In this document: in pieces, positions 19,915 through 62,886 of the stretch
Layout of the letters: the number at the start of each line of letters is the position of its first letter
Numbering within the stretch: the stretch's first letter is position 1
Assembly: GCA_016188965.1 (NCBI GenBank)
Contig: JACPGT010000002.1
Location: 84,125 to 148,124 of the forward strand
Origin: Candidatus Micrarchaeota archaeon
GTDB lineage: Archaea; Micrarchaeota; Micrarchaeia; Norongarragalinales; Norongarragalinaceae
DNA: 64,000 nucleotides
Reading direction: 5' to 3'
Translations under genes and position numbers: made by a program
Notes under the pieces: model-generated
Told to the model about the DNA's origin: nothing
Database searches by the model: none
What the model saw: the letters and a program-made list of their open reading frames with translations, nothing else

Positions 19915-20577
19915 TTATTGGGCTTTCAAGTCGGTGCCCGTCTTGAGGTGGTTCAGCGAATCCAGTGCGCTGATGCAGGCCTGCGCCACGTTCAGCACGT
20001 TGCGGGTGCGCCCTTTCGTGAACGTCCAGGCGTCCTGCATGCCGGCTAATTCCAGCACTTTCTTGGCGACTTTGCCGGCGACGATTCCGACGCCGCGCGG
20101 CGCCGGGCGGATGGAAATCTGCGTCGATCCGGACTTTCCGATGACGGTGCGGGGCAGCGAATTGGTGAATCCGGCGAGGTCTTCCCACGAACCGGATCCG
20201 AACGGCACGCGCACGAGGCGTTTCTTGGCGTTCTTGACGCCTTCGGCGATGGCGTCGCGGACTTCCGCGCCTTTTCCGATGCCGATGGCGATGACGCCTT
20301 TGCGGTTGCCGACCAGGACGACGGCGCGCATTTGTTGCTTGCGACCATATGCCGTCATGCGTTGCGTGCTTCGGATTTCCAGCACTTCGTCCGCCAAGTC
20401 GGGCAGCAGCGTGTCGATGATTTCCGGTTCGAGGATGGGCTTTTCCGTGGCGAGCAGTTCGTCGTACGTCTTGATCTGCCCGGCTTGTACGGCTTTGCCC
20501 AAGGCCGTCTTGGGTACCCATTTTTGGAGTGCGGACGTGTCGCGTTGCGAGGTGAATCGATCTTTTTTGAACTTCAT
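19915..20577 (-). CDS. rps5: 30S ribosomal protein S5 (uS5)
   Basis: VVLVGNRKGVIAIGIGKGAEVRDAI and GVGIVAGKVAKKVLELAG. ATG 20577 used because the ORF start is GTG. Confidence 0.95.
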   Translation of the reverse strand: MKFKKDRFTSQRDTSALQKWVPKTALGKAVQAGQIKTYDELLATEKPILEPEIIDTLLPDLADEVLEIRSTQRMTAYGRKQQMRAVVLVGNRKGVIAIGIGKGAEVRDAIAEGVKNAKKRLVRVPFGSGSWEDLAGFTNSLPRTVIGKSGSTQISIRPAPRGVGIVAGKVAKKVLELAGMQDAWTFTKGRTRNVLNVAQACISALDSLNHLKTGTDLKAQ

Positions 20578-28754: not shown

Positions 28755-28769
28755 TCTAAATGCACCTAA

Positions 28770-28845
28770 GCCCCAGGGGGCACCAAGGTTCCCCCTTGGC
28801 GCTTAGTCCGCCTCGTCCCCCTCCTTGCGGAAGGGTGTTGGGGGT
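28770..28845 (+). repeat. short copy (X1) of the G/C-tract hairpin repeat family X
   Basis: CCCCAGGGGG-N10-CCCCCTTGG hairpin followed by TCCGCCTCGTCCCCCTCCTT. Aligns to the first ~65 nt of X2 (44091-). Sits in the 113-nt L2-L23 spacer. Confidence 0.6.
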
Positions 28846-32655: not shown

Positions 32656-32856
32656 GCCGCCCTCCGCTTCGGGCATTCTTTTGACGCCGGTTTTCCGGCA
32701 ACTTCCTTCTTTTCCAATCCTCTTTGCGTTCTTTTCTTTGACGCGGGCTTTCGTCCGGAAATGAAAACGCTTTAGAACGCTTCGTGACAAAAGGAAAGAA
32801 CTTCGAAAGCCAAGGTGTTTGCCGCCGATTGCAGGAATCGGCGGTTTCGCTCAATT

Positions 32857-32969
32857 GCCCCTGTAGCTCAGCCTGGTACAGACGCGGTCGCCTTTTTCTT
32901 TCCGAAAGAAAAATGCGGCCTGCCGAAAAAGAAACGAAGAAAAAGGAATAAACCAAGAGTAAACGAATT
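32857..32969 (+). repeat. 22-nt duplicate of the tRNA-Thr(GGU) 5' end plus hairpin element Y1
   Basis: 32857-32878 is identical to 32970-32991 (GCCCCTGTAGCTCAGCCTGGTA, and the preceding AATT is also shared). It is followed by GC-rich sequence, TTTTTCTTT-CCG-AAAGAAAAA, GC-rich sequence and an AAAAAGAAAC A-rich tail. Confidence 0.7.
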
Positions 32970-33079
32970 GCCCCTGTAGCTCAGCCTGGTAGAGCGCGTC
33001 CATGGTAACACGCGATGGTCGAAAGACTGCCGCGTGCCCATACAGGACGAGGTCGCGCGTTCAATTCGCGTCGGGGGCT
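32970..33079 (+). tRNA. tRNA-Thr(GGU) with 36-nt canonical (37/38) intron
   Basis: Acceptor GCCCCTG/CGGGGGC. Anticodon stem CGTCC/GGACG. Loop AT-GGT-A then intron 33008-33043 forming a relaxed BHB (ATGG/CCAT central helix, CACGCG/CGCGTG inner helix). T arm GCGCG-TTCAATT-CGCGT. Confidence 0.85.
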
Positions 33080-34319: not shown

Positions 34320-35483
34320 TCAAGCAATCTTCTGCATTGCTTTTTCCCAAGCCGCCGTGATGCTGACGACGTAGTTGCGCGTCTCGCCAAAGCGGTGGTT
34401 GCGGCAGGTGTTGGCGTTTTTGGTTTGAACTTCGCGGTCGTAGGGTCCGGCGTTGTAGGCGGCCAAGGCGCATTCGACGTTGCCGCTGGTCCTCAATTGG
34501 CGGGAGAGATATTCGACGCCGCCGCATATGTTGAAGTACGGGTCGAATACTTTGTCCTGTCCGATGCCCATGCCGGCCGCCGTCCCCGGAGTCATCTGGG
34601 TGTAGCCCTGCGCGTATTTCGATTCGGCGAACTGCCTCCCGCCGCTTTCCTGACCCAAGACCGATCGCAGCAGTGAATACGGAACGTGGTACAATTCGGA
34701 CGCCTTCTTGAAGATGCAGGTCGGATCCGCCGTGCGCCATGAGCGGCCGCGGTAAGTCGCCGTGCCCGTCTGGGGGCAGGCGGATTCAACCTGCTTGACG
34801 CAGGCAGTCACGCCGGCTAGCTGGACTTGCGTTGTCTGGAATTCCGCCCGCGTTCTGACATCGTACGCGCCCGCCGTGGTCACGGGCTTGGGCTGCGTTG
34901 GCGTCACGGTTGCTGGGGCGGTTTTGCAGATGGTTTCGACGTCGCGTTGTGCGATGCCGGCGCGGCGGAGTTCGAAGTAGAGGGAGGGAAATGCGTTGGC
35001 TTCGGATTTTCCGGTTTTGCCGATGGTTTCGCCTTTTTTGACGTCGCTGCCTTCGGTTGGGTTAGGTCCGGTTTGGAGGTAGCCGTATGTTGTTTCGACC
35101 GTCGGGTTTGTCGCGTGTCGGATGGTGACGTATCGTCCGTAACCTAGCAAGTCGGTTCTGCCCGAGGCGATGACTTTGCCTCCGCTTGCGGCCCGTACGT
35201 CTGTTCCTTCGGGTAGGCGGATTTCGACGCCTTGGCGGATGCGTTTTTCGTTGTTGAGGTTTTTGTATTCGGCTCCGTATGCGCCGGTGACCGGTGCGTT
35301 GACGGGGCAGGTGAAGCTGGTGGTGGAGTAGGTGGTGCCGGTGGGTCCGGGTTTGATTTGTTCTAGTGTGAATCCGGAGAATAGGCAGATGTGGTTGGAC
35401 GGGCAGGATGGAAGCGTGAGGGCGAAGATGAGGCTGGAGTAAAGCAGGACGATTAGGATTGCAATCCCCGCAATGCGCCGCAT
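34320..35483 (-). CDS. secreted murein hydrolase: degenerate M23/LytM-like module plus SLT lytic transglycosylase
   Basis: Signal/TM MRRIAGIAILIVLLYSSLIFA. LytM-like core GVEIRLPEGTDVRAA..GYGRYVTIRH..LYFELRR lacks HxH. C-terminal SLT motifs VLGQESGG, YTQMTPGTA, LAAYNAG. ATG 35483. Confidence 0.8.
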   Translation of the reverse strand: MRRIAGIAILIVLLYSSLIFALTLPSCPSNHICLFSGFTLEQIKPGPTGTTYSTTSFTCPVNAPVTGAYGAEYKNLNNEKRIRQGVEIRLPEGTDVRAASGGKVIASGRTDLLGYGRYVTIRHATNPTVETTYGYLQTGPNPTEGSDVKKGETIGKTGKSEANAFPSLYFELRRAGIAQRDVETICKTAPATVTPTQPKPVTTAGAYDVRTRAEFQTTQVQLAGVTACVKQVESACPQTGTATYRGRSWRTADPTCIFKKASELYHVPYSLLRSVLGQESGGRQFAESKYAQGYTQMTPGTAAGMGIGQDKVFDPYFNICGGVEYLSRQLRTSGNVECALAAYNAGPYDREVQTKNANTCRNHRFGETRNYVVSITAAWEKAMQKIA

Positions 35484-35538: not shown

Positions 35539-36597
35539 TCATGAGATGTACTTCGTGGGAAGCAAAAAGGCGCCGTAGTCGCCACCGGTGCGCAGTTCAA
35601 AATGCAGGTGGGCTCCCCGCGAGCTTCCACGGTCCGGATCGCTTGACGCTCCCCCGGTCAGACCCACTGCCTGCGATGTACTGACACGCTGGCCTTTGAT
35701 GACGTCGCGGCGTTTGAGATGGCCGTACCGTGCGAAGACCGGTTTTCCGTTCATGCGGCAGTCGCACTGGATCACGACTTCGCCGCCGTAACCGCCGACG
35801 TCCTCCGCCCAACTGGTGTGCACGACTCCATCGCATGCCGCCGTTGCCACGGTTCCGGAAGCCACTCCGACATCGTCCCCTTTATGGTACCGGTAGCCTC
35901 CTGAACCCGTGGGCCGCAACTCCCCGGCGTGACTTCCCACCAAGGCCGGATAGTTGCCCGGCACCGGAGACTTGAAGTGGCAAGCGCCGGTCTGGGGCAG
36001 CAATGCAGCGGCCGGCGGAGCCGTGGCCTTGGTTTTGCAGATGTTTTCGACGTCGCGCTGCGCGATGCCGCCGCGGCGCAACTCAAAATAAAACGAAGGA
36101 AACGCGTTGGCTTCGGATTTTCCGGTTTTGCCGATGACTTCGCCTTTTTTGACATCGGTGCCTTCGACTGGGTTGGGGCCGGTCTGAAGATACCCATACG
36201 TCGTTTCGACCGTCGGGTTCGTCGCGTGGCGGATGGTGACGTACCGGCCGTAGCCGAGTAGGTCGGTTCTGCCGGAGGCGATGATTTTTCCGCTGGCCGC
36301 TGCTCGTACGTCTGTGCCTTCTGGTAGGCGGATTTCGACGCCTTGCCGCACCCGCTTCTCGCCATTGAGATTGACATATTCGCCGCCGTATGCGCCGGTG
36401 ACGGGTGCGTTGACGGGGCAGGTGAAGCTGGTGGTGGAGTAGGGGGTGCCGGTGGGTGTGGGTTTGATGGGTTCGAGGGTGATTCCGGAGAAGAGGCAGA
36501 CGTGGTTGCCCGGACACGACGGCAAGGTTAATGCCGATGCGGCGGCTGCCGAAAAAACCAAAGCGAATACAGCCGCCAGTACGGCGCGGTTTTCCAT
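35539..36597 (-). CDS. secreted murein hydrolase: degenerate M23/LytM-like module plus catalytic M23 peptidase
   Basis: The N-terminal ~190 aa are nearly collinear with 34320-35483. The C-terminal module has YHKGDDVGV (HxxxD) and GAHLHFELR (HxH). Confidence 0.8.
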   Translation of the reverse strand: MENRAVLAAVFALVFSAAAASALTLPSCPGNHVCLFSGITLEPIKPTPTGTPYSTTSFTCPVNAPVTGAYGGEYVNLNGEKRVRQGVEIRLPEGTDVRAAASGKIIASGRTDLLGYGRYVTIRHATNPTVETTYGYLQTGPNPVEGTDVKKGEVIGKTGKSEANAFPSFYFELRRGGIAQRDVENICKTKATAPPAAALLPQTGACHFKSPVPGNYPALVGSHAGELRPTGSGGYRYHKGDDVGVASGTVATAACDGVVHTSWAEDVGGYGGEVVIQCDCRMNGKPVFARYGHLKRRDVIKGQRVSTSQAVGLTGGASSDPDRGSSRGAHLHFELRTGGDYGAFLLPTKYIS

Positions 36598-37352: not shown

Positions 37353-37465
37353 TTGCGCCTTATCCTGACGTCGGCCGCCTTGCGTCCGCCGTTGCCCGAA
37401 TCGGGTCGTAAAGGTCATGCAGAACTTGCGTTTGCGCCCGGCAGGGCCAAACGCTTTGCTCAAAA

Positions 37466-37603
37466 GCCTCGGTAGCTCAGACGAGCCCATCTTTTCTTTG
37501 CGAAAGAAAAGCTAGGCGCCCCAAAAGAAACAACAAGAAAAGCCGGATAAAGGAAAAACGAAGCTTCAAAAACAGCGCACAACCAAAAAAGCAATGCAAA
37601 ATT
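37466..37603 (+). repeat. 15-nt duplicate of the tRNA-Thr(CGU) 5' end plus hairpin element Y2
   Basis: 37466-37480 is identical to 37604-37618 (GCCTCGGTAGCTCAG). It is followed by GAGCCCAT-CTTTTCTTT-GCG-AAAGAAAAG-CTAGGCGCCCC-AAAAGAAAC.., which shares 14-nt and 28-nt identical blocks with the tRNA-Leu(UAA) intron. Confidence 0.7.
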
Positions 37604-37675
37604 GCCTCGGTAGCTCAGCGGTAGAGCACCTGTTTCGTAAACAGGGGGTCACGAGTTCGATCCTCGTCCGGGGCT
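37604..37675 (+). tRNA. tRNA-Thr(CGU), intronless
   Basis: GCCTCGG-TA-GCTC-AGCGGTA-GAGC-A-CCTGT-TTCGTAA-ACAGG-GGGTC-ACGAG-TTCGATC-CTCGT-CCGGGGC-T cloverleaf. Confidence 0.9.
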
Positions 37676-43803: not shown

Positions 43804-43986
43804 GGAGGAGTGTCCTGAGTCTGGCCAAAAGGGCAGGACTTAAGAGCCGCCCATCTTTTCTTTTTGATAAAAAGAAAAGCTAGGCGCCCCAAAAGAAAAA
43901 CCGTCTAGCGCGCGAATCATACAGCTTCAGCGGCTAAGTCATCCTGTGGCTTTGTGCCTTCGGGGGTTCAAATCCCCCCTCCTCCA
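43804..43986 (+). tRNA. tRNA-Leu(UAA) with 96-nt canonical (37/38) intron carrying hairpin element Y3
   Basis: Acceptor GGAGGAG/CTCCTCC+A. Anticodon stem CAGGA/TCCTG, loop CT-TAA-G. Intron 43845-43940 forms a strict hBHBh' (central CTTA/TAAG, bulges AGA and TCA, inner GCCGC/GCGGC). Long variable arm. T arm GGGGG-TTCAAAT-CCCCC. Mature length 87 nt. Confidence 0.88.
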
Positions 43987-44066
43987 CTTTTGATTCGTAA
44001 GACTAAACTCGGGGGTTCGGGGTAACGTAGGACTATAGGGGGCGGAGCCCCCTGTGGTCCCGCGGC

Positions 44067-44089
44067 GGGTTCAAATCCCCCCTCCTCCA
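44067..44089 (+). repeat. 23-nt duplicate of the tRNA-Leu(UAA) 3' end
   Basis: GGGTTCAAATCCCCCCTCCTCCA at 44067-44089 is identical to 43964-43986. No matching 5' acceptor strand lies between the copies. Confidence 0.75.
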
Positions 44090-44090
44090 T

Positions 44091-44336
44091 GGTCGCCCCG
44101 GGGGAAACGCTGTTTCCCCCTGGCGCACCCTCCGCCTCGCCCCCTTCCTTTACGATTCTCAAATACTAGTTTGAGGGAGGGGCTGGAGGACATCACAATT
44201 TCCTGCCGGAAATTGTGTGGGCCCCCAATTCCGTAAGAATTGGGAGCACCTGAAACTGAAGGGGGAAACGTGGTTACCGACGGTCTTGCTTGACCGTCGG
44301 TTTCTTCCGCGCCCCCTGCGGTTCCGGTTGCAAATC
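44091..44336 (+). repeat. full-length copy (X2) of the G/C-tract multi-hairpin repeat family X
   Basis: Modules: GGTCGCCCCGGG, hairpin GGGGGAAAC/GTTTCCCCC, CCTCCGCCTCGCCCCC, GAGGGAGGGGC, hairpin CACAATTTCC/GGAAATTGTG, hairpin CCCAATTC/GAATTGGG, hairpin ACCGACGGTC/GACCGTCGGT, end CCCCCTGCGGTTCCGGTTGCAAATC. Collinear with X3. Confidence 0.65.
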
Positions 44337-52356: not shown

Positions 52357-53193
52357 TTACGGCGCGTTGGGGTCGGGGTGCCAGATGCAGAACGACAATG
52401 CATAGCTGCGCAGCTTGCGGTCGGGCGGGTTGACGGCAGTGTTCACGTAGATGACTTTGAAGGGCACTTGGACAGTGACGACGTCGGGGCTGACGTCTTT
52501 GGCCCCGGCGCAGATGCCGAATTGCGAGGGCGCGCCAACCCTGAGGAACCGGGGATAGTCCGTAATCAGGCGGCTGTTGAGGTACTCTCCGCTGCCTTTG
52601 GGCATCACCCGCACGGCCGCGCCGTCGGCCGAGTCCGTGTCGATGACGTCGAATCCGTAGTAGAATCCGGCGTACCAGAATGGCTTCATCAGTTCCTTGA
52701 CGGCGCACTTGTAGGCCGTGATGCCGGCGGCTTTCGTGCCGTCGAACTCGTCATCCAGCTTGGCGTCGAATTCCGCCAAGTCGCGCTTGAGCAGTTCGGT
52801 GACGGAGAAGCTGCCGCTGTACTTTTCCAGTCCCTTGCATCCGCTCACGGGATCCGCCAGGTCCCGGTAGATTTCCAGCGGCGTGGTGGCGGGGTTGCCC
52901 GCGCGGTTGACGGTGGACTCGCGGTTGTCGATGTTGCGCAACGTCGACGCATCGATGTAGTAGGATGCCTTCACCACGCTCTGCATGTAGTTGAGGATGT
53001 AGGCCGAGCGCAGGACGCGGTCCTGCTGCGTACCGTACGTCGTGACGAAGCTGAAGATCAACGCGGACGAGATGGCGGCCAGCAGAAGCAGGTTGACGCC
53101 GTCAAAGATGGCGGCTTGTCCTCGCTGGAACCGCGGTCTGTAGTGCCGGCCGGTGGCGGCTTTCTTTTTCAGATTTTCCCACGTTCCTTCCAT
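52357..53193 (-). CDS. type IV pilin-like protein (class III signal peptide)
   Basis: MEGTWENLKKKAATGRHYRPRFQRGQ/AAIFDGVNLLLLAAISSALIFSF. ATG 53193. Confidence 0.6.
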   Translation of the reverse strand: MEGTWENLKKKAATGRHYRPRFQRGQAAIFDGVNLLLLAAISSALIFSFVTTYGTQQDRVLRSAYILNYMQSVVKASYYIDASTLRNIDNRESTVNRAGNPATTPLEIYRDLADPVSGCKGLEKYSGSFSVTELLKRDLAEFDAKLDDEFDGTKAAGITAYKCAVKELMKPFWYAGFYYGFDVIDTDSADGAAVRVMPKGSGEYLNSRLITDYPRFLRVGAPSQFGICAGAKDVSPDVVTVQVPFKVIYVNTAVNPPDRKLRSYALSFCIWHPDPNAP

Positions 53194-53789
53194 ACGATCA
53201 CGTTGATGAGGCCCAGGCCGTTGGTGGGCAACCCGTCGATGATGGCACACGGTACGGCGACGGGGTAGGTGAACGTCACGGCGTCCGCCGGCACCTTTAG
53301 GATTTCGTTCGTTCGGGGGTTGGGCACGTTGGTGCAGTACGTCCACGTGTGTCCATATACTTCGTTGGGGTCGCTTGATTCGGTCCGTGTCTTTTCCAGG
53401 TACGTCGGGCTCAAGCGGGCTTCCTGGGGCGCCGGATTCTCCCTCGGATAATAGAACCGTATCCCGTGCTGGCCTGGCGGTTCGACGCAGTATCGTTTGA
53501 TGGTCACGACGAACTGGATGTGGTTGGACAATGCGTATTTCTTGAGGTTGTTGTCACACGTCTTCTTTTCGAATTCGGTCTGGTTTTGGATGAGGCCTTT
53601 TTCCGTCACGATGTATGACAGACCCAACCCGGCTTGCCTTGTTTCCAGCGTCCGGTTCTTTCCCGTGACCAGTCCGTTGGCGTACACGAGGGTGCCGACG
53701 AACAGCAGGACGGCGGCGATGATGGGAAAGATGCTGGGCAGGTCGTCCCCCAATGGGCCTACGAATCCGCGTTTTTGTTTCATACGCAT
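53169..53789 (-). CDS. type IV pilin-like protein (class III signal peptide)
   Basis: MRMKQKRG/FVGPLGDDLPSIFPIIAAVLLFVGTLVYA. Only the last 206 codons of the 466-aa ORF are used. Confidence 0.6.
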   Translation of the reverse strand: MRMKQKRGFVGPLGDDLPSIFPIIAAVLLFVGTLVYANGLVTGKNRTLETRQAGLGLSYIVTEKGLIQNQTEFEKKTCDNNLKKYALSNHIQFVVTIKRYCVEPPGQHGIRFYYPRENPAPQEARLSPTYLEKTRTESSDPNEVYGHTWTYCTNVPNPRTNEILKVPADAVTFTYPVAVPCAIIDGLPTNGLGLINVIVWKERGKI

Positions 53790-54853
53790 TTGGGTCTGCC
53801 TCCCGTGATGGCGTTCGGCGCTCCAGTAGCCGGGTCGTTCGCCAGCGCTTCCCATCCGCAGCATTGCAGGACGGGATTCTGCAGTTTTTCGCTCAACGAC
53901 GTGACGTTGGTGTTGATGCGGGGGTCGCACGTGGCCGGGTTGAGGGCGACGCCCAGCCGCTCGCCGCAAGACCGCGCGTACAGGTAACTGACGCTGCCGC
54001 TTTTCTTGGGCCGGCACTTGGCCATGACCAGGTAGTAGTCCCGCCATTGCAGGTCCGACGGTTTGAGTACCAGGTTTGCCTCGGCTTGCCAGCGCGAGAG
54101 CATGGTGACCGGGTCGGCCAGGATGATGGATTTGTCGTACACCGCGCGTGCGTAACCTTCGCAACCCGAGCCGGACTGGACGTGGACCACCAGCGATCCG
54201 CTGCCTTGGCCGTCCGTTGCGGACGAGGGGATGTTGGTGATGTTGATGGAGTACCGTTCCAGTTGGCTCTTGCCGACGGAAAGCGATGATTCCAGCGTGT
54301 AGACCTTGCGCTCGTCCTCGACCGGCGAGTTGATGACGTTCGTCAGCGTGGCGGCGATGTTGCGGGCCATAGACTGTGCTTGCGTCCGGCAGATGGATTC
54401 CTTCTGCGCGTCGGAAAAGCTCACCATGATGGCCGCCAAGGTGATGATGAAAAAGACCATAGCGAATTTGGTGAGCATGAACAAGGCGATTTGTCCCCGT
54501 AATCCCCGGGGGGCACATGGTTCCCCCCTGGAGATTCCGCACAAGTCCGTGGGGGACTTGTGGGGCCACACAAATTCCCGTGAGGAATTTGTGCTGACTC
54601 CTCCTCGCCCCCCTCCTCGGGAAGTGGTGGAGGCCCAGGGCGGGCCAGGGAGAAACCGAAGGTGTCTCCCGGGGCGACCGCGTGATTTCGTGAGCATGAA
54701 CCAGGCGATTGGTGCCCGGGTTGTCTGGCTTTGCGGGGGTTCTCGGCGAGGGCTTCGGGCCGCGTTGGGCGTTGCCTCGTCGTCGGATGCCATGACAGCA
54801 GAAACGCAGGCCGTTGTTTTAACCGTTTGGCCTTCCACGTGGGTTTGTGGCAC
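53780..54853 (-). CDS. type IV pilin-like protein whose 5' region contains repeat X3 (start codon uncertain)
   Basis: RGQ/IALFMLTKFAMVFFIITLAAIMVSF at 54491-54499 and downstream. Upstream in frame lies the Gly/Arg/Pro-rich translation of X3 and a duplicated IAWFMLTK. Confidence 0.5.
   Translation of the reverse strand: MPQTHVEGQTVKTTACVSAVMASDDEATPNAARSPRREPPQSQTTRAPIAWFMLTKSRGRPGRHLRFLPGPPWASTTSRGGGRGGVSTNSSREFVWPHKSPTDLCGISRGEPCAPRGLRGQIALFMLTKFAMVFFIITLAAIMVSFSDAQKESICRTQAQSMARNIAATLTNVINSPVEDERKVYTLESSLSVGKSQLERYSINITNIPSSATDGQGSGSLVVHVQSGSGCEGYARAVYDKSIILADPVTMLSRWQAEANLVLKPSDLQWRDYYLVMAKCRPKKSGSVSYLYARSCGERLGVALNPATCDPRINTNVTSLSEKLQNPVLQCCGWEALANDPATGAPNAITGGRPKCV
54494..54683 (-). repeat. 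copy X3 of repeat family X, inverted relative to X2, flanked by an imperfect 29-bp direct repeat
   Basis: Collinear with X2 when read on the minus strand: GGTCGCCCCGGG.., CACAAATTCC/GGAATTTGTG, ACAAGTCC/GGACTTGT, CCAGGGGGG../CCCCCCGGGG. Direct repeats 54465-54493 and 54684-54712 match at 25/29 positions. Confidence 0.65.
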
Positions 54854-54863
54854 TCCTTCCTTT

Positions 54864-55577
54864 TCAGCGGTTGGCCGGCACGGCGCACATCTTGATCTGC
54901 GTGTGTCCCCTGAGGTCGCCTACGGAAAGTATCTTGTTGAACGTGATGAGGTATTGCCGGGTGTCCGAGCTTCCCAGCGTCACCCAATTCGAGCGGGCTG
55001 CGATGTCCGGCGAGATGCCCAAATCGGCTTCGCACGCGTGGCTGCCGTCCGAACACGGCGTGACCCGAAGCTCGGTGCAGCCCTGCTGCGTCCCTTGGTC
55101 TTCGATGCTCACCCGTTCGGCCGGCAGTTCGATGCACGTGATGGCGTCGCTGACGCGCTCGAAGCCGTCCTTGGTCTTGGCCACGGGTACGATCTGCCAA
55201 CATCCCGCGTAATGCCCCGGACAACGCTTGCACAGCTCCGGATTAGTGAATTTGACGAATTGGATGCTTTCAATCGTCTGGTCGCCGCAGCGCGGCATGG
55301 AAAACCGCACCGTCTTCTTGCTTCCGGCCGAGCCGAGGCCCACGTCCAGAATGGCTTCCTGCAGTTGCTGCGTCTGGGTCTTGAGCGTGGCCAGGCAACG
55401 GCCCGTCTCGGTCTGGCCCATGACGTAGAACGCCAGGCCCATGCTGGTCACGAGGATGATGATGGCCACGACCAATTCAATCGGGGCGTCCATTTGTCCC
55501 CGAACCGCGGGGGGGACGCTTCCCCTCCCCAGTTTGAGGTTCTTCCGGCCCCTCCCCTCATTTTTGTGCGTGAACAT
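54864..55577 (-). CDS. type IV pilin-like protein with partial repeat X4 in its pre-sequence
   Basis: MFTHKNEGRGRKNLKLGRGSVPPAVRGQ/MDAPIELVVAIIILVTSMGLAF. ATG 55577. Confidence 0.55.
   Translation of the reverse strand: MFTHKNEGRGRKNLKLGRGSVPPAVRGQMDAPIELVVAIIILVTSMGLAFYVMGQTETGRCLATLKTQTQQLQEAILDVGLGSAGSKKTVRFSMPRCGDQTIESIQFVKFTNPELCKRCPGHYAGCWQIVPVAKTKDGFERVSDAITCIELPAERVSIEDQGTQQGCTELRVTPCSDGSHACEADLGISPDIAARSNWVTLGSSDTRQYLITFNKILSVGDLRGHTQIKMCAVPANR
55497..55560 (-). repeat. truncated copy X4 of repeat family X
   Basis: Minus strand GAGGGGAGGGGCCGGAAGAAC..GGGGAAGCGTCCCCCCCGCGGTTCGGGGAC matches the purine-rich module and the 3' end of X3 and X2. Confidence 0.55.
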
Positions 55578-55625
55578 TACCTTTTGTTGACGTGTGCAGC
55601 TGGCTTGCAATTGAATGCGCATGTT

Positions 55626-55892
55626 TCAGCGCCCTCTGACTAAGATGGTTGGTATGGCCCGGATGCCTAGCATTTCAAGGACGGCCGGATTCTTTTTCTT
55701 CAACCATCCTTGGCTGGCCGGCCACAACAAAAGCGGCAGCAAGGATTTGGCGGCGTCTTTCGCGGCCTGCGCGTTGGTCTCGGCCGTCACGGCGGCTTGG
55801 CGGAACATGGGCTTGACGAACGTCACCAGCAGGATGGCGGCGATGGCCAGCACGACCAGCAAGTAAAGAGGGGCCCATTCGCTTCCGCGCAT
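55626..55892 (-). CDS. small type IV pilin-like protein (class III signal peptide)
   Basis: MRG/SEWAPLYLLVVLAIAAILLVTFV, 88 aa from ATG 55892. Confidence 0.55.
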   Translation of the reverse strand: MRGSEWAPLYLLVVLAIAAILLVTFVKPMFRQAAVTAETNAQAAKDAAKSLLPLLLWPASQGWLKKKNPAVLEMLGIRAIPTILVRGR

Positions 55893-55973
55893 ATGCTCAA
55901 GACGGAAGGGACAAAGAAAAAGGTTTCGGGCCCGAAACCGTGCCAAGCTGGCGCGTCCGGACCCGTCTGGGAC

Positions 55974-56468
55974 TTAGCGGAGGCAGGTTTCCGTACAAGT
56001 CGAGCGGGCATCGCTTCCCTGACGGCCCACGGAGATGCAGTACTTGCCTTTCGAGTCGTCGCCGCAAACCACGACATACGCCTTCGTGTTCTTGTTGACC
56101 GTGATGGAACCCGTGCCGGGCGCGTCCTCCAAGTTCAACGGGGCGTCAGAACCCGAGCACAATTCCGTGCTTTGGGAGCCGCATTTGAATTGTACTTCGC
56201 TTTCGGAGACTGCGGCGTCGCCCAGGACGCTCTTGACGTCGATGTACTCGTCCTTCTTGAATTCGACTTGCTTGGGCGAAGACGTGCCGTAACCTGAAGT
56301 GACGATGCTTTTCAGTTCGGTTTTCATGATTTCTTTGGCGCTGTTGGGGTTGAAGTTGAGGCTGTTCAGTACGTTCATCAGCACGGCGAGGATGGCCATG
56401 GCTACCAGCACCGAGATGACCAGCATCATCGTGTCGAATGCTTGCGCGCGCGTTTTTCCGAAATTCAT
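55974..56468 (-). CDS. type IV pilin-like protein (class III signal peptide)
   Basis: MNFGKTRAQ/AFDTMMLVISVLVAMAILAVLM, 164 aa. Confidence 0.6.
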   Translation of the reverse strand: MNFGKTRAQAFDTMMLVISVLVAMAILAVLMNVLNSLNFNPNSAKEIMKTELKSIVTSGYGTSSPKQVEFKKDEYIDVKSVLGDAAVSESEVQFKCGSQSTELCSGSDAPLNLEDAPGTGSITVNKNTKAYVVVCGDDSKGKYCISVGRQGSDARSTCTETCLR

Positions 56469-56623: not shown

Positions 56624-58927
56624 TCAGCCGAAGAAGGAACTGGCCAGAAAGACCGTTACACAGTACAGGATGACGGCCAGAGGCACGTTTTTGGCAATCG
56701 ACATGTAGTTGTGCAGTTCGTTGTCCGTATCCTCGATCTGGGCGTTGAAATACGACAGGAGGATGACGACTTCCAGCACGTAGACGCCCAGGATAAGGAT
56801 GAACAATCCCGGTTCGGCCGCTTTTTCCAGGGCCGTGGGGTTGAACAGGTTGCCGAAACCGCCGCCGCCTAACCCCCCCAGGCCTCCGCTGGCTTCGGCG
56901 CCGGCCTCCACGCCCGAGCCGCCTTGTGAGGCGATGCTGGTGATGATGAGCCGCTGCATGGCTGAGACCACGCCCAGCACGATGGGCGCGATGAACGAAG
57001 CCATGGTCCCGAGCATGACCGTCACGTCTTGCAGGAGCTTGCGGAGTGATTCGTTGATTTTTTCCGAGTTGCGAAGCTGCATGGACAGCGAGATGAGCGA
57101 GCGGGCGGCCACGTCCACGCCTAAGTCTACTGAATCGACGAGGAACTGCATGCCGCTGCGGATGATCTGCGATGGCACCAAGCGCAATGCGCCGAAGGTC
57201 TTGTCGAAAATGGACGATTCCAGCGTCATGCCCAGCGTGGAAATGTTCTCGACGATGCGTCGGAAAACGTTGCGGCCGATCTGGCTTTTCGGCAGGAAGG
57301 CGACGGCGGAGCGCAACGCCTCTTCGATGGGTTTGTTCTCGCCCATGCGCGAGGCCAGTACGTACATGGCGTCCTTGAATTCCGTCTCCATGGCGCGGAC
57401 GTCGTCTTGCACCTTCTTGCGGGCGGAGTACTTGCCGGTGAGGTAATTGCTGATGGCAAGTCCGAGGCCGATGATGAAACCGAAGATGGTGAACTGGCCG
57501 ATGAAAAAACCGTTCTGGGCCGCGAGGCGGATGTGCGGAATCTTTTTGTACTCTTCGGCCAGCGCCGAGGGGTTGGCGTCCGCGGAAGACGATGCCTCCA
57601 ATACCGGCAAAGCGTCTAAAATGCGTTCCTGCCGCTCACTGGGTTGTACCAGGAACGGATCGATTCCGCCTAAGGTGCCCGTGATGCGGATGCCTTCGGC
57701 CAGGGGGCTGGACGGGTCGAAGCCGGGATTGTCCGGCTCGATTAAGTGCATCAATGGCAGGTACGCGGCGTTGTTGACTACGTCTTGCGTCACGCCGATG
57801 TCGGTGAAGTAGCCCAGCGCCAGGGCGCCGATGACCAACAACAGCGCCGTCATGCCGAACGGAGGCGTGGGGGGTAGGCCGGGAAAGTTTGCCGGAATGC
57901 GGGGAGGGCGGTTCGTCGGCGGCTTGTTGGCCAGGATGCTTTTTCCGAACATGAACACGCCGATGGGAATGACGAATACGTACAACGCGATGAGGAAGAA
58001 CGGGCTCGAAATGAGTTCGTTGTTCGCAAGGGATGCGCCGATGGGCAGCAGGATGGCCATCAGAAGCGGAAGCAGGATTCCGAAGTAATACAGATAGACC
58101 GTGGGCTGCTGTAGCTTGCGGGCGTACAAATCCATCTTTTCCTTGCTGCCTTCCAACACGTCCTGGCCGGCCTTGTCCAACAAGGCGAAGCGGCGTTCCT
58201 TGTCGCCTTCCAGGATGGATGCGCGGATCATCATCAACGCATGTTTGAAGTCGTCGTTGTACACGCCCCAGCGGTATGCCAGTTCATCGAGGCCTTCCTC
58301 TACGGACTCGTAGCGGCCGATCTGCACGTCCCAAACGATTTTCTTGAGGTCTTCGGCAATCTTGCCTTGCCCGTGGTTCGCCGCGAATTCTACGGCCCGC
58401 TCCAAATTGGGCGTCAGGCGCATGCTCATGGTGAGGTAGTTGACGATTTCCGGAACGTACGCCAGGCTCTCGATCTTCTCTTTCTCGACTTGTGAGAACG
58501 GAATCTTGCGGTACATGCGCGAGATGACGAATGGCAACGCGACGAGTACCAGGCCGATGCCGCCTTTGATGGTGATGTCGACGCTTTCGCCGGCTACGAA
58601 GAATATCGTCGCGGCCAGCACCAAGCCGATCCACATACCGGTGCCTTGGATGCCTTTGTACGCCGCGCAGAACTGCTCGGGCGTGATGTCCCAGCCCAGA
58701 AAAGCGATGGCGTCCGCTTCGTCGTCGGTGAACTTGCCGCCTTTTCCGTACGACGCGAAGGATTTGGCCAGGTTATGTGTGGTCTTGACGAACGCCGGCG
58801 TCTGCGGCGGGCCTTTGTGGGTATCCTCGAAGTCCGAGTACGCGGCGGCGCCTTGCGAGTAGAGGCCTTGCGGCTTACCTGGCTTTTCGGGCTTTACGCT
58901 TCGCGCCGGTTTGTCGGAAGGGGGCAT
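56624..58927 (-). CDS. polytopic pilus/archaellum platform protein (FlaJ/TadC/GspF-like)
   Basis: 767 aa with many TM helices and two cytoplasmic T2SS-F-like helical regions (YLTMSMRLTPNLERAVEFAANHG..; FKDAMYVLASRMGENKPIEEALRSA). Directly downstream of the ATPase. Confidence 0.65.
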   Translation of the reverse strand: MPPSDKPARSVKPEKPGKPQGLYSQGAAAYSDFEDTHKGPPQTPAFVKTTHNLAKSFASYGKGGKFTDDEADAIAFLGWDITPEQFCAAYKGIQGTGMWIGLVLAATIFFVAGESVDITIKGGIGLVLVALPFVISRMYRKIPFSQVEKEKIESLAYVPEIVNYLTMSMRLTPNLERAVEFAANHGQGKIAEDLKKIVWDVQIGRYESVEEGLDELAYRWGVYNDDFKHALMMIRASILEGDKERRFALLDKAGQDVLEGSKEKMDLYARKLQQPTVYLYYFGILLPLLMAILLPIGASLANNELISSPFFLIALYVFVIPIGVFMFGKSILANKPPTNRPPRIPANFPGLPPTPPFGMTALLLVIGALALGYFTDIGVTQDVVNNAAYLPLMHLIEPDNPGFDPSSPLAEGIRITGTLGGIDPFLVQPSERQERILDALPVLEASSSADANPSALAEEYKKIPHIRLAAQNGFFIGQFTIFGFIIGLGLAISNYLTGKYSARKKVQDDVRAMETEFKDAMYVLASRMGENKPIEEALRSAVAFLPKSQIGRNVFRRIVENISTLGMTLESSIFDKTFGALRLVPSQIIRSGMQFLVDSVDLGVDVAARSLISLSMQLRNSEKINESLRKLLQDVTVMLGTMASFIAPIVLGVVSAMQRLIITSIASQGGSGVEAGAEASGGLGGLGGGGFGNLFNPTALEKAAEPGLFILILGVYVLEVVILLSYFNAQIEDTDNELHNYMSIAKNVPLAVILYCVTVFLASSFFG

Positions 58928-59022: not shown

Positions 59023-62000
59023 TTATTCGGCCGCGACGGTCGCCTGTTTCTGCCGCACCAGGTCGGCGACGAGTTCGGAGTCGACCCAGGCCTTCCAGTC
59101 GGCCATCAGCTTGGGGTAATCCAAGTTGCCGGTCTCCTCGCGCTGCTTTTCCGTCAAGATCAGGTAATGCATGTGGGCCCGCACGGCGTACTCGGCTTCC
59201 AAGAGCCGGGGGATGCCGTACTGGTTCTTCTGGTCCACCAAGTATTGTTTGGTCTGGCCGCGGGCGAGGATCTCGTTCCACACTTCGTCCGCATCCAGGC
59301 CGCGCATGCGCTGGACTTTCTTGAGCCACTCGCTTTTGCCTATGATGTCGTCCTTGAAGATCTCCAAATCATCCTTGTTGGCGTCGAACGTCATCCAGTT
59401 GACGAAACCGTGCTCTTTGCCGGGGTCGGACTCCCAGTCCTTGAGCACTTCCGTCACCTCGATGAGGCGGCGGTGGCGCTTGAGCGAGCCTTTGAACCGG
59501 ATGGGTGCGGCCACCACGCAGAAGTCCGTGGCCTTGAAACTCGTCGTCGGCACGCCCAAGTCGTTCACCACACGGTCCCAGATGGAATATGCGGATTCGC
59601 CGTGGATGGTGCCCATGACGACGTTGCCCACGGCACCGACACGCATGGCCTCGTACAATGCCTTGGCTTCACCCGAACGCACTTCGCCCACGATCAGCAC
59701 CGAGTCTCCCAGACGCAAGGCCGTACGGAGGGCGTCTTCGGCCGACACTTCCGACTCCGTGCCGCCGCCCAAAGGAGGCCGCGTCTTCATGCGCTGGATG
59801 GAGAGGCCCAATTTTTTCATCTGCGGAACGGGAAGCTCCTGCGTGTCTTCTTGCACGAGTACCCTCAAGTTTTGAGGCAGTTCCAGCATCATGGCCTGCA
59901 GAAGCGATGTGTTGTGGGCGATGATGCCGTTGGCCACGAAGGAGTGCGTCCCGTCAACAGTGAGGTCGTAGACGTATGGTCCGGATGGCGCGACTTTTTC
60001 GATTTGGACGACTCGGTCCCAGTACAGTTCGGAGTGCGCCAGGTTGTGCATCTGGCGGATTTTTTCATCATCCGGCTTTTTTTCGAGGGCATCGTGGGCG
60101 ATTTGTTGCAATTTGTTCCGGCCGATTTCGTGCTGATCAAGGCTCGTTTTTCCGAAGCCGTATTCCTTTTTCGTGTGTTCCAGCAAGGCCCACGCGTTCG
60201 GAATGACGTCGACGTTGGAGTTGAATTTCCGTCCCTTCAGCATGTCCTCTAAGCGTTTTTGCTTGTCGGGGTGGCCGAATCCGATGCGTTGGGCAAACCG
60301 CAGGCAGTTATCCCCCCGGATGAAGCCACGGTAATACTCGGTCCCGTTGACTTGTTTGGGTTTCCGGATGCTTTGGATTCCGAAGCGGAGCAGCGCGTAC
60401 TGCATTTGCTCGGCCATTTTAGGGCTTGCGGTGCAGAACTCGATTTCCGTCTTGTCTTTCCGGACGCTGGAGTCGCAATCGAAATATCCCTTGATGAATT
60501 CGGCCAAGCCGGCGTCGGATGCGGACAAGATTTCGTTCGGCATTTCTTGGAACGGCGCTTTTTTCCCACTGGGCAGGCCGAAACGGCCCCGCACCATCCG
60601 GCTGACGGCCCGCGAGGACACTTGGTACATGGGCGAGCGATTCTTGGGATGGCGGATTTTACCTTTTGCGCCGAAGACTTGTTCCGACAATTTCTGGAAG
60701 TCGGCCAGCAGTGTCGGGTGGGTGTTGGTGAACGTCAGCTCCACGTCATCGACGTGACCGTCGCCGTACAACAGCCCCAGAAGCCGGGCGTATTCCATCG
60801 TCATCCGGTCCGTCAGGATTCCTGCGTTCATCACGTGGTTCGAGTTGTTGGATTTGACGTCATTCAGTTGGCTGACGTATTGGCCAATCTCACTGCCGGT
60901 GTATTGCGCGATTTTTTCCATTTCTTCGAACGAAACAGCATTGCGGACGCCGTTCTTGAGGTTGGCCGCGGTCCTGTAATTCATCCCCATGGCGGCGGCT
61001 GCAATGTTCAGCGGCGTTTTTTGCTGTATTCGAGTCAATCTCTCCCTGGCAAGGGGTGCCAGTTCGGGGTATTTGAGTCCGAAAAGGTGAGACTGTTCCC
61101 GCATCCGGTCCAAATCAAGGCCTTTGGTTTGGCCCGAGTGCGTCGGAATCGTCCTGGGCGTGGCGACGAATCCTCCGGTCTTAAGTTCATCCGCTCGGAT
61201 TTGCGTCACGAATCCTTCTTTGACCGTGAAGAAGGGGTGTTCCGGCGTCGTGGTGATTTGCTTTCCGGAGGCCAGCATGATTTTGAACATTTCGGCGGGT
61301 GCGCTGCGACGCCAAACCTTCTCAACCGGCGCAGCTCGGACTTTCAAATCCGACGTCATGGTCAAAATATCCAATCCGTTGCATTCGGCGTAGCATCCGT
61401 CTTCGATTAACGTCGGGTTGTGGAGGTTTTCTTCCACAAGCTGTTCGATCCGTTTCAGGCTTCCGTCGGCCATCTGGATAAGCGTATCGCCTTCCAGGCA
61501 TTTTCCGGCGCCACGACTGCCCACGATGAGCATGGATGCCTGGGCGTCGACGAAGAAGGACAGCATGCCGGCGGCAAAGCTGCCGAATGCCTTGCCATCG
61601 ACGAACTGCGCCAGGGTCCACGGCGTCTGCTTGTGCAACCGTAAGGCAAACGCGATGCCGTCGAGCGCAAGGGGTTTTCCGATGACGGCGATGCGCGTCT
61701 GCAAGTCCTCCAGGTCGAAGTCCAGGATGGGGTGCGCCTCGTCAAACGGCCGGCCGGAGAGGGCGCGGAATCGTGAGACGATGCTTCTGGCTTCTTCGTT
61801 GGAAAAGATGACGTTCGTCTGGCATTGGCCGTACTTGCCGTGCACCAGGTAGATGGGTTTGTCGCCCAAGGGCGAGTCGATGTATACGTCGGTCACGCGG
61901 CGGTCGGACAGAAGCACTTCCATGATGCCGTAGCCGATAGTGTAGCGCGCCACGATGGACGCCAAGTCTTCTTTTTCTTCGACGGAGAGCTTGATGTTGT

Positions 62001-62886
62001 TCTTCAGCGCCAAGTCGGCGATGGTCGCCACATAGACCTTGCGGAAGTACTTGCGGGCTTGCGTGATGTCCAAGAATTGCACGCTTTCCGGCCGGTGCTG
62101 CGCCACCACTTCCTTGGTCTTTTCCAGCAGGAAGTATTTTTCCGGCGGCAGGCTGTACTCCGGAGGATTGATGAAGTAAAGGTACTGCACCTGGTCGGGG
62201 TGGCGGTAGATGTAGACCTTGCTGCCGCCCACGTCGTACTGGTCGACCAGTTCGAGCTGCTCGGTCGCGGAAAAGAAGATGCGCGAGCCGATGAAGGACG
62301 GCTTGATCGAGCTTTCGAAGAACGCGTGGTACGCGGTGCGGCCTTCCGGGATGCTGCCCAGCTGGGACAAATAGTCTTTCATGGCCTGGATGAGCTTCAT
62401 CTCTTCCATCTTCTGCCGCATGTAGCGCAGCGTGCCCAGGTAAATCTGCACGTCTTCGGCATTGGGCCCGGCGGCGGCTGCCTGCGCGGCGACGGTTTTC
62501 ATCTCCTGCACCAGCGTCAGGTAGGCCTTGAACGGGTCGGACTTGATTTGGGCCATGATGCGCAACACGGCGTCATGTCGCGGGCCCAAGGTCTTGGATT
62601 CCGTCGTCTTGCCCAGGTGCGACGGGCTCCAGACGGCGTCGGCTTCCAGGTTGTTGACCAAGTCGGCGACTTCGCGCAGCCAGCCGGTCTGCTTCTCATC
62701 GTAGATGCGTTCGTAGTACTCGCTGAGCACCACTTCGTCCGCGTCGGCTTCGCGCAGCTTCTCGACGACGTCTTGGAATGCCTGGCCGTACTGGGCGATG
62801 TCGGGGCCCCAGGCCATGCCGCGGTAGTCGATGACCAGTCGCTTTTTGCCGCCGTCGCTTTTCACGACGGCCTGTCCGGGAGCCAT
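59023..62886 (-). CDS. GspE/VirB11/FlaI-family secretion or pilus ATPase interrupted by an intein
   Basis: Walker A GSRGAGK|..|TSLLQ. After the intein come VLVQEDTQEL (Walker B/Asp box), LRLGDSVLIVGEVRSGEA and GTIHGESAYS (His box). The extein totals 757 aa. Confidence 0.85.
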   Translation of the reverse strand: MAPGQAVVKSDGGKKRLVIDYRGMAWGPDIAQYGQAFQDVVEKLREADADEVVLSEYYERIYDEKQTGWLREVADLVNNLEADAVWSPSHLGKTTESKTLGPRHDAVLRIMAQIKSDPFKAYLTLVQEMKTVAAQAAAAGPNAEDVQIYLGTLRYMRQKMEEMKLIQAMKDYLSQLGSIPEGRTAYHAFFESSIKPSFIGSRIFFSATEQLELVDQYDVGGSKVYIYRHPDQVQYLYFINPPEYSLPPEKYFLLEKTKEVVAQHRPESVQFLDITQARKYFRKVYVATIADLALKNNIKLSVEEKEDLASIVARYTIGYGIMEVLLSDRRVTDVYIDSPLGDKPIYLVHGKYGQCQTNVIFSNEEARSIVSRFRALSGRPFDEAHPILDFDLEDLQTRIAVIGKPLALDGIAFALRLHKQTPWTLAQFVDGKAFGSFAAGMLSFFVDAQASMLIVGSRGAGKCLEGDTLIQMADGSLKRIEQLVEENLHNPTLIEDGCYAECNGLDILTMTSDLKVRAAPVEKVWRRSAPAEMFKIMLASGKQITTTPEHPFFTVKEGFVTQIRADELKTGGFVATPRTIPTHSGQTKGLDLDRMREQSHLFGLKYPELAPLARERLTRIQQKTPLNIAAAAMGMNYRTAANLKNGVRNAVSFEEMEKIAQYTGSEIGQYVSQLNDVKSNNSNHVMNAGILTDRMTMEYARLLGLLYGDGHVDDVELTFTNTHPTLLADFQKLSEQVFGAKGKIRHPKNRSPMYQVSSRAVSRMVRGRFGLPSGKKAPFQEMPNEILSASDAGLAEFIKGYFDCDSSVRKDKTEIEFCTASPKMAEQMQYALLRFGIQSIRKPKQVNGTEYYRGFIRGDNCLRFAQRIGFGHPDKQKRLEDMLKGRKFNSNVDVIPNAWALLEHTKKEYGFGKTSLDQHEIGRNKLQQIAHDALEKKPDDEKIRQMHNLAHSELYWDRVVQIEKVAPSGPYVYDLTVDGTHSFVANGIIAHNTSLLQAMMLELPQNLRVLVQEDTQELPVPQMKKLGLSIQRMKTRPPLGGGTESEVSAEDALRTALRLGDSVLIVGEVRSGEAKALYEAMRVGAVGNVVMGTIHGESAYSIWDRVVNDLGVPTTSFKATDFCVVAAPIRFKGSLKRHRRLIEVTEVLKDWESDPGKEHGFVNWMTFDANKDDLEIFKDDIIGKSEWLKKVQRMRGLDADEVWNEILARGQTKQYLVDQKNQYGIPRLLEAEYAVRAHMHYLILTEKQREETGNLDYPKLMADWKAWVDSELVADLVRQKQATVAAE
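59911..61500 (-). mobile_element. 530-aa intein with LAGLIDADG homing-endonuclease domain
   Basis: Residues 463-992: block A CLEGDTLIQMADGS, block B TTTPEHPF, LAGLIDADG motifs LLGLLYGDGHV and LAEFIKGYFDCDSS, blocks F/G YVYDLTVDGTHSFVANGIIAHN, then Thr+1. Confidence 0.85.

Follow-up and report, generated by a model that had tools for sequence, protein, structure and literature searches.

The 64,000-nt stretch of a Candidatus Micrarchaeota archaeon genome analysed here (the window; contig JACPGT010000002.1) carries, on the minus strand between 52.3 and 62.9 kb, a type IV pilus-like locus in which the leaders of two pilin-like genes, p1 and p2, are lengthened by copies of a GC-rich repeat, family X. 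The locus holds six small genes whose products start with a basic residue, then Gly or Ala, then a hydrophobic helix; an open reading frame (ORF, 59023-62886) for an ATPase with an above-threshold T2SSE match, which contains an intein; and an ORF (56624-58927) for a polytopic membrane protein with a weak T2SSF match (E 0.006, 16.9 bits, cut-off 25.2 bits). This gene order is kept in the relatives L041 and L045. Four copies of X lie in the 64 kb (X1, X2, X3/Xp2 and X4), plus a shorter form, mini-X (Table 1). Comparison with related loci shows X copies that, to judge from the duplications flanking them, entered the pilin 5' coding region just past the class III cleavage site.

In p1, the codons CGG GGA CAA (Arg-Gly-Gln, RGQ; 55502-55494) are followed by an ATG (55493-55491), and a further in-frame ATG lies upstream (55577-55575), as an earlier reading made from the letters of this DNA (the sequence-only reading) had described; the N-terminal translation that it quoted, MFTHKNEGRGRKNLKLGRGSVPPAVRGQ|MDAPIELVVAIIILV, with the RGQ codons ahead of MDAPIELVV, is also found as given. 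The motif stands directly before a hydrophobic stretch of about 20 residues (RGQ|MDAPIELVVAIIILVTSMGLAFYV), as in class III signals. The pattern (K/R)(G/A/S)Q, with x(D/S/E)APIEL next, hardly varies across 33 aligned homologues and some 70 distinct orthologous loci, and every one of the 34 p1 homologues comes from metagenome-assembled genomes of Micrarchaeota/Norongarragalinales. The residue at +2 after the cleavage site varies (V, A, M, T or E), so that the ATG at 55491-55493 is no conserved start; together with the conserved (K/R)(G/A/S)Q this leads us to reject initiation after RGQ, the option that the sequence-only reading had named as one that would leave the motif untranslated.

Most of the roughly 70 p1 orthologues have leaders of a few residues (MRGQ, MKGQ, MKKRGQ), and long p1 leaders occur in the window's clade only, plus one unrelated long leader in L090. 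In the window, the leader measures 43 aa from ATG 55622 (28 aa from ATG 55577) in p1 and 100 aa from ATG 54793 in p2, which exceeds the class III norm of a few to about 30 residues. The true p1 start is probably ATG 55622, giving the 43-aa rather than the 28-aa leader; this codon sits 3 nt past the stop of the upstream gene, and its placement in L041 is similar. A TATA-like box, GGTTAAAA, stands about 25 nt upstream of the p2 start at 54793 and is conserved as GGTTAAAATCG or GGTTTAAATCG in L041, L045 and L050 (four genomes with the window), a spacing that suggests a leaderless or near-leaderless transcript, which would then be translated from this ATG. Public gene calls conflict, giving p1 252 aa (L001) or 237 aa and starting p2 at the Met after RGQ. 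An AlphaFold2 model of p1 (predicted local distance difference test score 86.8) has residues 1-29 disordered, a 49-residue helix (33-81) and a beta-rich head, a predicted architecture that is pilin-like. A Foldseek search of this model against the PDB gave no match with E <= 0.001; no Pfam class III signal or NCBIfam pilin profile matched, even with N-terminal peptides at E = 10; and no prepilin peptidase gene was identified in the window.

Empty sites are found close by. In L041, whose p1 is 85% identical at the protein level, ATG CGC GGA CAA lies 6 nt after the upstream gene (MRGQADAPIEL) and p2 has the X-free leader MAQKEAKKKPRSDSHHPVRGQ|IALWMLTKF; L045 is likewise empty of X, and the gap between p1 and p2 is 50-62 nt in these two (62 nt in L041) versus 370 nt in the window. 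The sequence-only reading had drawn the RGQ of p1 from the end of the repeat. This does not hold, since X-free orthologues (L041, L045 and about 60 others) have ATG CGC GGA CAA. Its conservation in about 70 orthologues, and in close relatives without X, argues that RGQ is native to the pilin and translated. In the filled sites, the RGQ codons are part of the duplicated piece of pilin that flanks X, and X contributes the residues before RGQ, ending in GCGGTT(CCGG) and read as Ala-Val or Arg-Phe-Arg.

The filled sites are best read in relatives with well-kept duplications. L044 and L050 have two X copies each. In L044 p1, an exact 25-nt direct repeat (25/25), GCGGTTCGGGGGCAAGTGGACGCGC, surrounds a 74-nt X4-like insert, and in L044 p2 a 31-nt repeat (26/31 matching) surrounds a 101-nt X insert. 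L050 p1 keeps the original ATG and RGQADAPIELV upstream, then a 140-nt insert and a second 34-nt copy (33/34). In window p2, the downstream partner of the duplication (RGQIALFMLTK) lies at 54466-54499; the upstream copy of window p1 is decayed, and we read it as a putative duplication by analogy with L050 and L044. The duplicated piece consists of the RGQ codons and the first 4-10 mature codons (21-34 nt). Insertion points lie after codon +5 in L044 and after codon +10 in L050, a difference that marks independent events. All five duplication spacings (99, 117, 132, 174 and 219 nt; four computed, the 117 nt of window p1 read off coordinates) are multiples of 3, and the pilin frame is free of stops in all five inserts. 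The other frames both have stops in L044 p1, L050 p1 and window p1; one of them does in L044 p2 and neither in window p2. In another relative, L005, the p2 5' end (leader plus RGQIAMWMLTK) is present in at least three tandem 72-nt in-frame units at about 10700-11110, with no X; this array ends in a run of N, and an assembly problem or a longer array is possible.

On balance we favour the view that X is a dispersed repeat confined to one Micrarchaeota clade, modular in build, able to form hairpins and non-autonomous, inserted in frame and with target duplication into pilin leaders, where it would be read through and cut off. Duplication of the target piece rebuilds an intact cleavage site and N-terminus downstream of X, and the upstream copy decays. 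Translation would run from the original ATG (55622 in p1, 54793 in p2) through X in frame, adding a disordered, Arg/Gly/Lys-rich cytoplasmic leader extension (43 aa in p1, 100 aa in p2) that the prepilin peptidase would discard by cutting G|Q. That X is translated and then discarded is suggested by the in-frame spacings, the stop-free inserts, the upstream ATGs and the intact bodies under purifying selection (p1 and p2 are full length, with a ratio of nonsynonymous to synonymous divergence, dN/dS, of 0.13-0.4 in both X-bearing and X-free lineages), and the insertion would be tolerated because X lies in a discarded part of the protein. As for the mode of insertion, the copies have a 3' end in common but variable, mosaic 5' parts, they lie in either orientation, and the duplications around them vary in length. 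These traits suggest that X is copied in, by template switching or in a retroposition-like way, rather than moved by a classical cut-and-paste transposase.

Table 1. Pilin-like genes, copies of family X and associated features of the window
Feature	Position	Strand	Remarks
X1	28767..28831	+	only the H1 hairpin and pyrimidine-tract module; sits in the 113 nt separating the minus-strand ribosomal protein genes uL23 and uL2
tRNA-Leu(UAA)	43805..43990	+	96-nt bulge-helix-bulge intron, 43845-43940; read by eye
mini-X, TTTTGATTCGTAAGAC..GGGGGCGGAGCCCCCTG	43991..44057	+	between the 23-nt tRNA-Leu 3'-end repeats
X2	44091..44336	+	full-length, non-coding, behind tRNA-Leu
p3	52357-53193	-	leader ..PRFQRGQ
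p2b	53169-53801	-	N-terminus MKQKRG|F
p2, pilin-like gene	53780..54793	-	RGQ 54491-54499; mature part begins QIALFMLTKFAMVFF
X3/Xp2	54500..54684	-	large X form inside the p2 leader
Upstream p2 target copy (..RAPIAWFMLTK)	54685..54718	-	34 nt, 30/34 (88%), spacing 219 nt
p1, pilin-like gene	54864..55622	-	RGQ 55494-55502; mature part begins QMDAPIELVV
X4	about 55503..55601	-	small X form inside the p1 leader
Decayed upstream p1 target copy, ATGCGCATTCAATTGCAAGCC	55602..55622	-	against GTTCGGGGACAAATGGACGCC at 55485-55505: 15/21, spacing 117 nt
Small pilin-like gene	55626-55892	-	N-terminus MRG|S
Small pilin-like gene	55974-56468	-	N-terminus MNFGKTRA|Q

That X4 is a partial copy of the family, as first proposed, is borne out by alignment. 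Its local alignment to X2 scores 32.2 versus 18.9 +/- 2.9 for dinucleotide shuffles (z 4.6; 0/500 shuffles reach it), the matching blocks being the purine tract, AAACTG with the G-run, and the C-run with GCGGTTC, while two hairpin blocks of X2 are skipped. The full copy of another genome (L050, 1140-1340) aligns to X4 with z about 13 and to X2 with z 26. Searches with nhmmer match X4 to L049 (5e-12), L044 (5e-7) and L050 (3e-4), and Xp2 to X2 (E = 7e-10; z about 16 versus dinucleotide shuffles); X2 is also homologous to L004 19652-19716. The 28-aa pre-sequence is, as the sequence-only reading stated, mostly X read in the pilin frame. The same reading had counted a third pilin, p3, with a related sequence before its RGQ. 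The string, CGCGGTTCCAGCGAGGACAA, is indeed present at 53116-53135 on the minus strand; its likeness to X is confined to about 10 nt (GCGGTTCC) and falls short of significance (the alignments are reached by 24/500 and 141/500 shuffles), so we rejected the p3 leader as an X copy. The string could be what an X 3' end left behind as a scar; in L041, p3 has GCGGTTCCGA twice in tandem.

In its full form, X runs in the order H1 (GGTCGCCCCGGGGGAMAC..GTTTCCCCCTGG), pyrimidine tract (CCTCCGCCTCGCCCCCTTCC), AT-rich A, purine G, optional H2/H3, C (GTGAAACTG), H4 (a G-run, a loop and a C-run) and the end GCGGTTCCGG, and its termini are GGTCGCCCCGGG or TTTTGATTCG on one side and GCGGTTCCGG on the other, with no clear terminal inverted repeats (at most a 6-7 nt likeness, CACGCGG / CCGCGGT). 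The p1 copies comprise the A-G-C-H4 part only. In X4, the AT-rich A is followed by a purine-rich G (GAGGGGAGGGGCCGGAAGAAC), C (CTCAAACTG), H4 (GGGGAGGGG..CCCCCCC) and the end GCGGTT, translated in the pilin frame as ...MFTHKNEGRGRKNLKLGRGSVPPAV. Xp2 has H1 (GGTCGCCCCGGGAGACACC..), the pyrimidine and purine tracts, H2 (54569-54593), H3 (54540-54562) and H4; X2 has H1, the pyrimidine tract, A, G, H2, H3, C, an H4 split by a terminator-like hairpin, and the end GCGGTTCCGGTTGCAAATC.

These folds invite another explanation, namely that X functions as an RNA element in cis, was recruited to the pilus operon as an attenuator, stabiliser, processing site or translational regulator, and is conserved for its structure, its translation being incidental. 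X2 and Xp2 fold strongly (z -7.75 and -4.1), and the hairpins H1-H4 persist through compensatory changes: X2 and Xp2 differ in H2 and H3 by paired changes, and across seven copies of H4 three compensatory pairs have changed on both sides. The terminator-like hairpin of X2 is followed by a T run, and the largest copy occupies the sole long gap of the operon. Further, the X4 stretches of the window and L049 share 85% identity, in a flanking gene with a synonymous divergence (dS) of about 0.83, and they do so without constraint at the protein level. Because the 13/84 nt that differ make 10 nonsynonymous and 2 synonymous codon changes against this dS, X is either younger than the lineage split or constrained at the nucleic-acid level, and the peptide that it encodes shows no constraint. 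The high similarity is explained equally well by a master copy that spread recently, however, and the same operon exists in close relatives entirely without X. Copies lie at unrelated sites and in both orientations (L050), with a module content that varies by copy, and no Rfam family covers them: Rfam 15 at gathering score reports one tRNA only in the window, and X2, Xp2 and X4 match nothing meaningful at E <= 10, which disposes of a known RNA family as the identity of X. We regard a cis-acting RNA as unlikely relative to an inserted repeat that is read through and cut off. Nor is X a dedicated portable signal module, as had also been suggested, for copies lie behind tRNA genes and in a ribosomal protein operon, protein-level constraint is absent, and the reading frames differ (the purine tract gives E-G-R-G-R-K-N in p1 and G-G-E-R-G-G-V in p2).

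The 3' end of X deserves separate attention, since the sequence-only reading held it to be homologous to the coding region of the pilin signal peptide. It had quoted the end of X2 correctly, CTGCGGTTCCGGTTGCAAATC (44316-44336, plus strand), which is unique in the window. In copies that flank tRNA genes, the end GCGGTTCCGG is followed by TTGCAAATC, and this does resemble the p2 leader GCGGTTCGGGGACAAATC; the likeness stands, then, and the part of the claim that fails is RGQ, which does not come from X. The 19-mer GCGGTTCCGGTTGCAAATC at the X2 end, next to tRNA-Leu, recurs unchanged in the L050 copy that lies behind tRNA-Tyr, so that it belongs to the element; the L050 copy continues with TTGGCCAGCGGGA, which repeats the acceptor end of tRNA-Tyr. 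The 19-mer may have begun as ..AVRGQI in a copy resident in a pilin gene and decayed since, or its likeness may be what guides X to leaders. As a remnant of a local pilin body the X2 end was rejected: no hydrophobic ORF follows it, and the same 19-mer ends the L050 tRNA-Tyr copy. GCGGTT before RGQ is restricted to the X-bearing clade, outgroups having ATGCGGGCGCAAATC, AAAGCCCAAATC and similar sequences, and on this distribution it is probably a scar of the X 3' end, including in the seemingly X-free p2 of L041 and L045.

The likeness of the 19-mer to the decayed ..AVRGQI of p2 can also be turned around: long leaders would be the ancestral state of the pilins in this clade, the element would derive from such a leader, with X2 and further non-coding copies as decayed duplicates of pilin 5' ends, and short leaders would be deletions, which recombination between the flanking direct repeats could produce precisely. 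We think this improbable. The roughly 70 orthologues outside the clade mostly have leaders of a few residues, and the long X-bearing ones are found inside it only; the original ATG and a copy of RGQ... remain upstream of X; and insertion points vary between lineages, with X modules occurring also alone (X1) and reversed.

Outside pilin genes, non-coding X is found behind tRNA-Leu(UAA) in the window, tRNA-Leu(CAG) in L004 and tRNA-Tyr in L050. The tRNA-Leu gene of the window is the target of both the mini-X and X2 insertions, and its 3' end is duplicated exactly (23/23 nt; 43964-43986 and 44067-44089); the last 23 nt or so of tRNA-Leu and tRNA-Tyr are direct repeats flanking the inserts. A match of the transfer-messenger RNA model at tRNA-Leu reflects a tRNA-like molecule with an insert. 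Mini-X (67 nt) has homologues behind tRNA-Leu in L003 (two tandem units) and L004, and occurs reversed within the p1-leader insert of L050.

Because the window's tRNA-Leu has a large bulge-helix-bulge (BHB) intron, the tRNA splicing endonuclease could in principle remove X together with one copy of the duplication from the pilin transcript and restore a short-leader mRNA, and an insertion flanked by direct repeats is indeed excisable without a scar; an intron-like element, 'Y' (below), lies beside duplicated tRNA 5' ends. Yet a BHB scan, with the tRNA-Leu intron detected as positive control (H=4, h=6, h'=5), finds no such structure in the five pilin inserts when held to their exact duplication spacings. 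Relaxed criteria yield a single candidate, in window p2; it forms 3 of 4 central pairs and falls outside the target duplication, and splicing there would not restore the leader. Moreover, a spliced-out X would need no in-frame, stop-free inserts. Splicing is therefore very improbable here, and translation through X remains our preferred account of the leaders.

A number of other observations concern the tRNA genes. Genes with long introns are found in the window (43805-43990 and 32966-33075), in L050 (about 955-1137) and in L003 (about 20019-20221, minus strand); the intron measures 96 nt in tRNA-Leu(UAA) and about 115 nt in the L050 tRNA-Tyr. ARAGORN and Rfam (gathering score) miss these long-intron genes and report one tRNA for the whole window. 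Two tRNA 5' ends are duplicated 138 and 113 nt upstream (37449-37480 / 37587-37618; 32853-32878 / 32966-32991, the latter 26 nt and exact), and between the duplicated ends lies the AT-rich hairpin element 'Y' (..CCCATCTTTTCTTTGCGAAAGAAAAGCTAGGCGCCCCAAAAGAAA..), which also forms the tRNA-Leu intron; the insert at 32871 starts CGCGGTCGCC, like the X 5' end. Finally, a 16-bp BHB-like pairing with many G-U pairs (43962-44092) would join the tRNA-Leu variable arm to mini-X and the second 3'-end copy; it is probably due to chance, and would otherwise create an alternative 3' half.

Several points weigh against the view that X inserts into leaders, is read through and is then cut off. Read-through and cleavage we infer from the reading frames, and mobility from presence/absence and multiple copies. 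The 100-aa p2 leader is, to our knowledge, far beyond the length of any prepilin leader, and p2 might use an internal start (GTG/TTG inside H2/H3) or be impaired. The pilin identity of the genes rests on the motif, the locus (T2SSE; weak T2SSF) and the modelled architecture. We know of no transposase that makes long, variable duplications such as these, and among the 20 ORFs of the window Pfam finds no transposase, integrase, reverse transcriptase or Cas1. Duplication could have come first and insertion later, as separate steps, given the L005 p2 repeat without X. Lastly, a profile of the small form, run over about 1 Mb of Micrarchaeota loci, finds copies in p1 leaders (five lineages), p2 leaders (two lineages) and tRNA flanks only, in loci that were chosen around pilin genes, so that enrichment at leaders is biased. 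A viral or proviral origin was considered and rejected: four pattern scans of IMG/VR gave chance matches only (three without the hairpin, one to an AT-rich phage).

More speculatively, Micrarchaeota might carry a hitherto undescribed class of tiny mobile elements (X, possibly the AT-rich 'Y') that integrate at gene ends (the 5' end of pilin genes, either end of tRNA genes) with a target duplication of about 21-34 bp that rebuilds the gene end. In pilin genes X would hide in the cleaved signal peptide, a safe harbour for selfish DNA, comparable in effect to inteins and introns, with the host signal peptidase as the means of removal. We offer this wider idea tentatively, as a possibility that we would not yet count as likely. 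In another Micrarchaeota clade, the p2 leader (L012, about 10690-10760; L064, about 1580-1650) contains a different GC-rich palindrome, GCTGCATCC(C)GCGG(G)ATGCAGC, flanked in L064 by a direct repeat of about 10 nt (GCATGCGYCC) and absent in L015 and L010. It thus seems that leaders in general collect small palindromes.

An element of this kind is not without counterparts: Rickettsia palindromic elements (RPEs), described by Ogata et al. in 2000, are said to occur both between genes and in frame within them, where they are translated and tolerated. X is similar in being short, non-autonomous and hairpin-forming, with intergenic copies and with in-frame, stop-free insertions inside ORFs. It differs in that it has no sequence relationship to RPEs, an archaeal (DPANN) host and target duplications of 21-34 nt, and its protein-borne copies are confined to a cleaved leader, whereas RPEs are kept in the mature protein. 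X is thus a variant resembling RPEs, set apart by its unusually long target duplications. It further resembles MITEs (miniature transposable elements with inverted repeats), BOX and REP/BIME in being small, multicopy, modular (H1-pyrimidine, A-G-C-H4, optional H2/H3), structured and non-coding, and, as for MITEs, it is present or absent among relatives and has several non-coding copies. Unlike MITEs, X has no clear terminal inverted repeats, its target duplications are variable rather than short and of fixed length, and no partner insertion sequence was identified. The repeats of about 23 nt that flank inserts at tRNA-Leu and tRNA-Tyr are reminiscent of integrative elements at tRNA 3' ends (attL/attR), and the duplication of the target, of a length (about 21-34 bp) in the range of CRISPR repeats, recalls casposon and CRISPR-spacer integration. 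Unlike those elements, the inserts are 70-250 nt and non-coding, the duplication is specific to each target (p1, p2, tRNA), and the window showed neither an integrase nor Cas1. With regard to the signal itself, p1 and p2 are like EppA-type class III signals in having a basic residue and Gly/Ala with a predicted cut before an invariant Gln: EpdA of Methanococcus maripaludis, which EppA processes, is cut at RGQI, and the Gln at +1 is needed for cleavage (PMC4187195). As in class III pilins, a hydrophobic helix follows; the locus also encodes the pilus ATPase and, as a candidate partner with its below-threshold T2SSF match, the polytopic membrane protein. Unlike EppA-type signals, p1 and p2 lack an acidic residue at +5 and a Pfam class III match, and with X their leaders reach 43-100 aa, where a few to about 30 is usual.

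The neighbourhood has further features of its own. After the pilin-like gene at 55974-56468, a terminator-like hairpin, GGTTTCGGGCCCGAAACC then TTTTTCTTT (55893-55973, minus strand), may act as an attenuator within the operon that sets the ratio of major to minor pilin. The intein of the pilus ATPase carries a LAGLIDADG homing endonuclease domain, and Pfam lists the intein splicing domain twice in the L041 orthologue (1466 aa). A 300-nt direct repeat, 84% identical (34920-35219 / 36031-36330), lies in neighbouring minus-strand ORFs, one of them with Peptidase_M23, which are probably tandem paralogues.

Automated annotation hides the class III signal peptides of p1 and p2, given the conflicting start calls, and the long duplications that recur at the ends of pilin and tRNA genes suggest a mechanism of insertion that we cannot match to a described one. 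If our preferred account is correct, the signal peptide is a tolerated landing site for repeats in compact DPANN genomes, and prepilin peptidases handle leaders several times longer than described.

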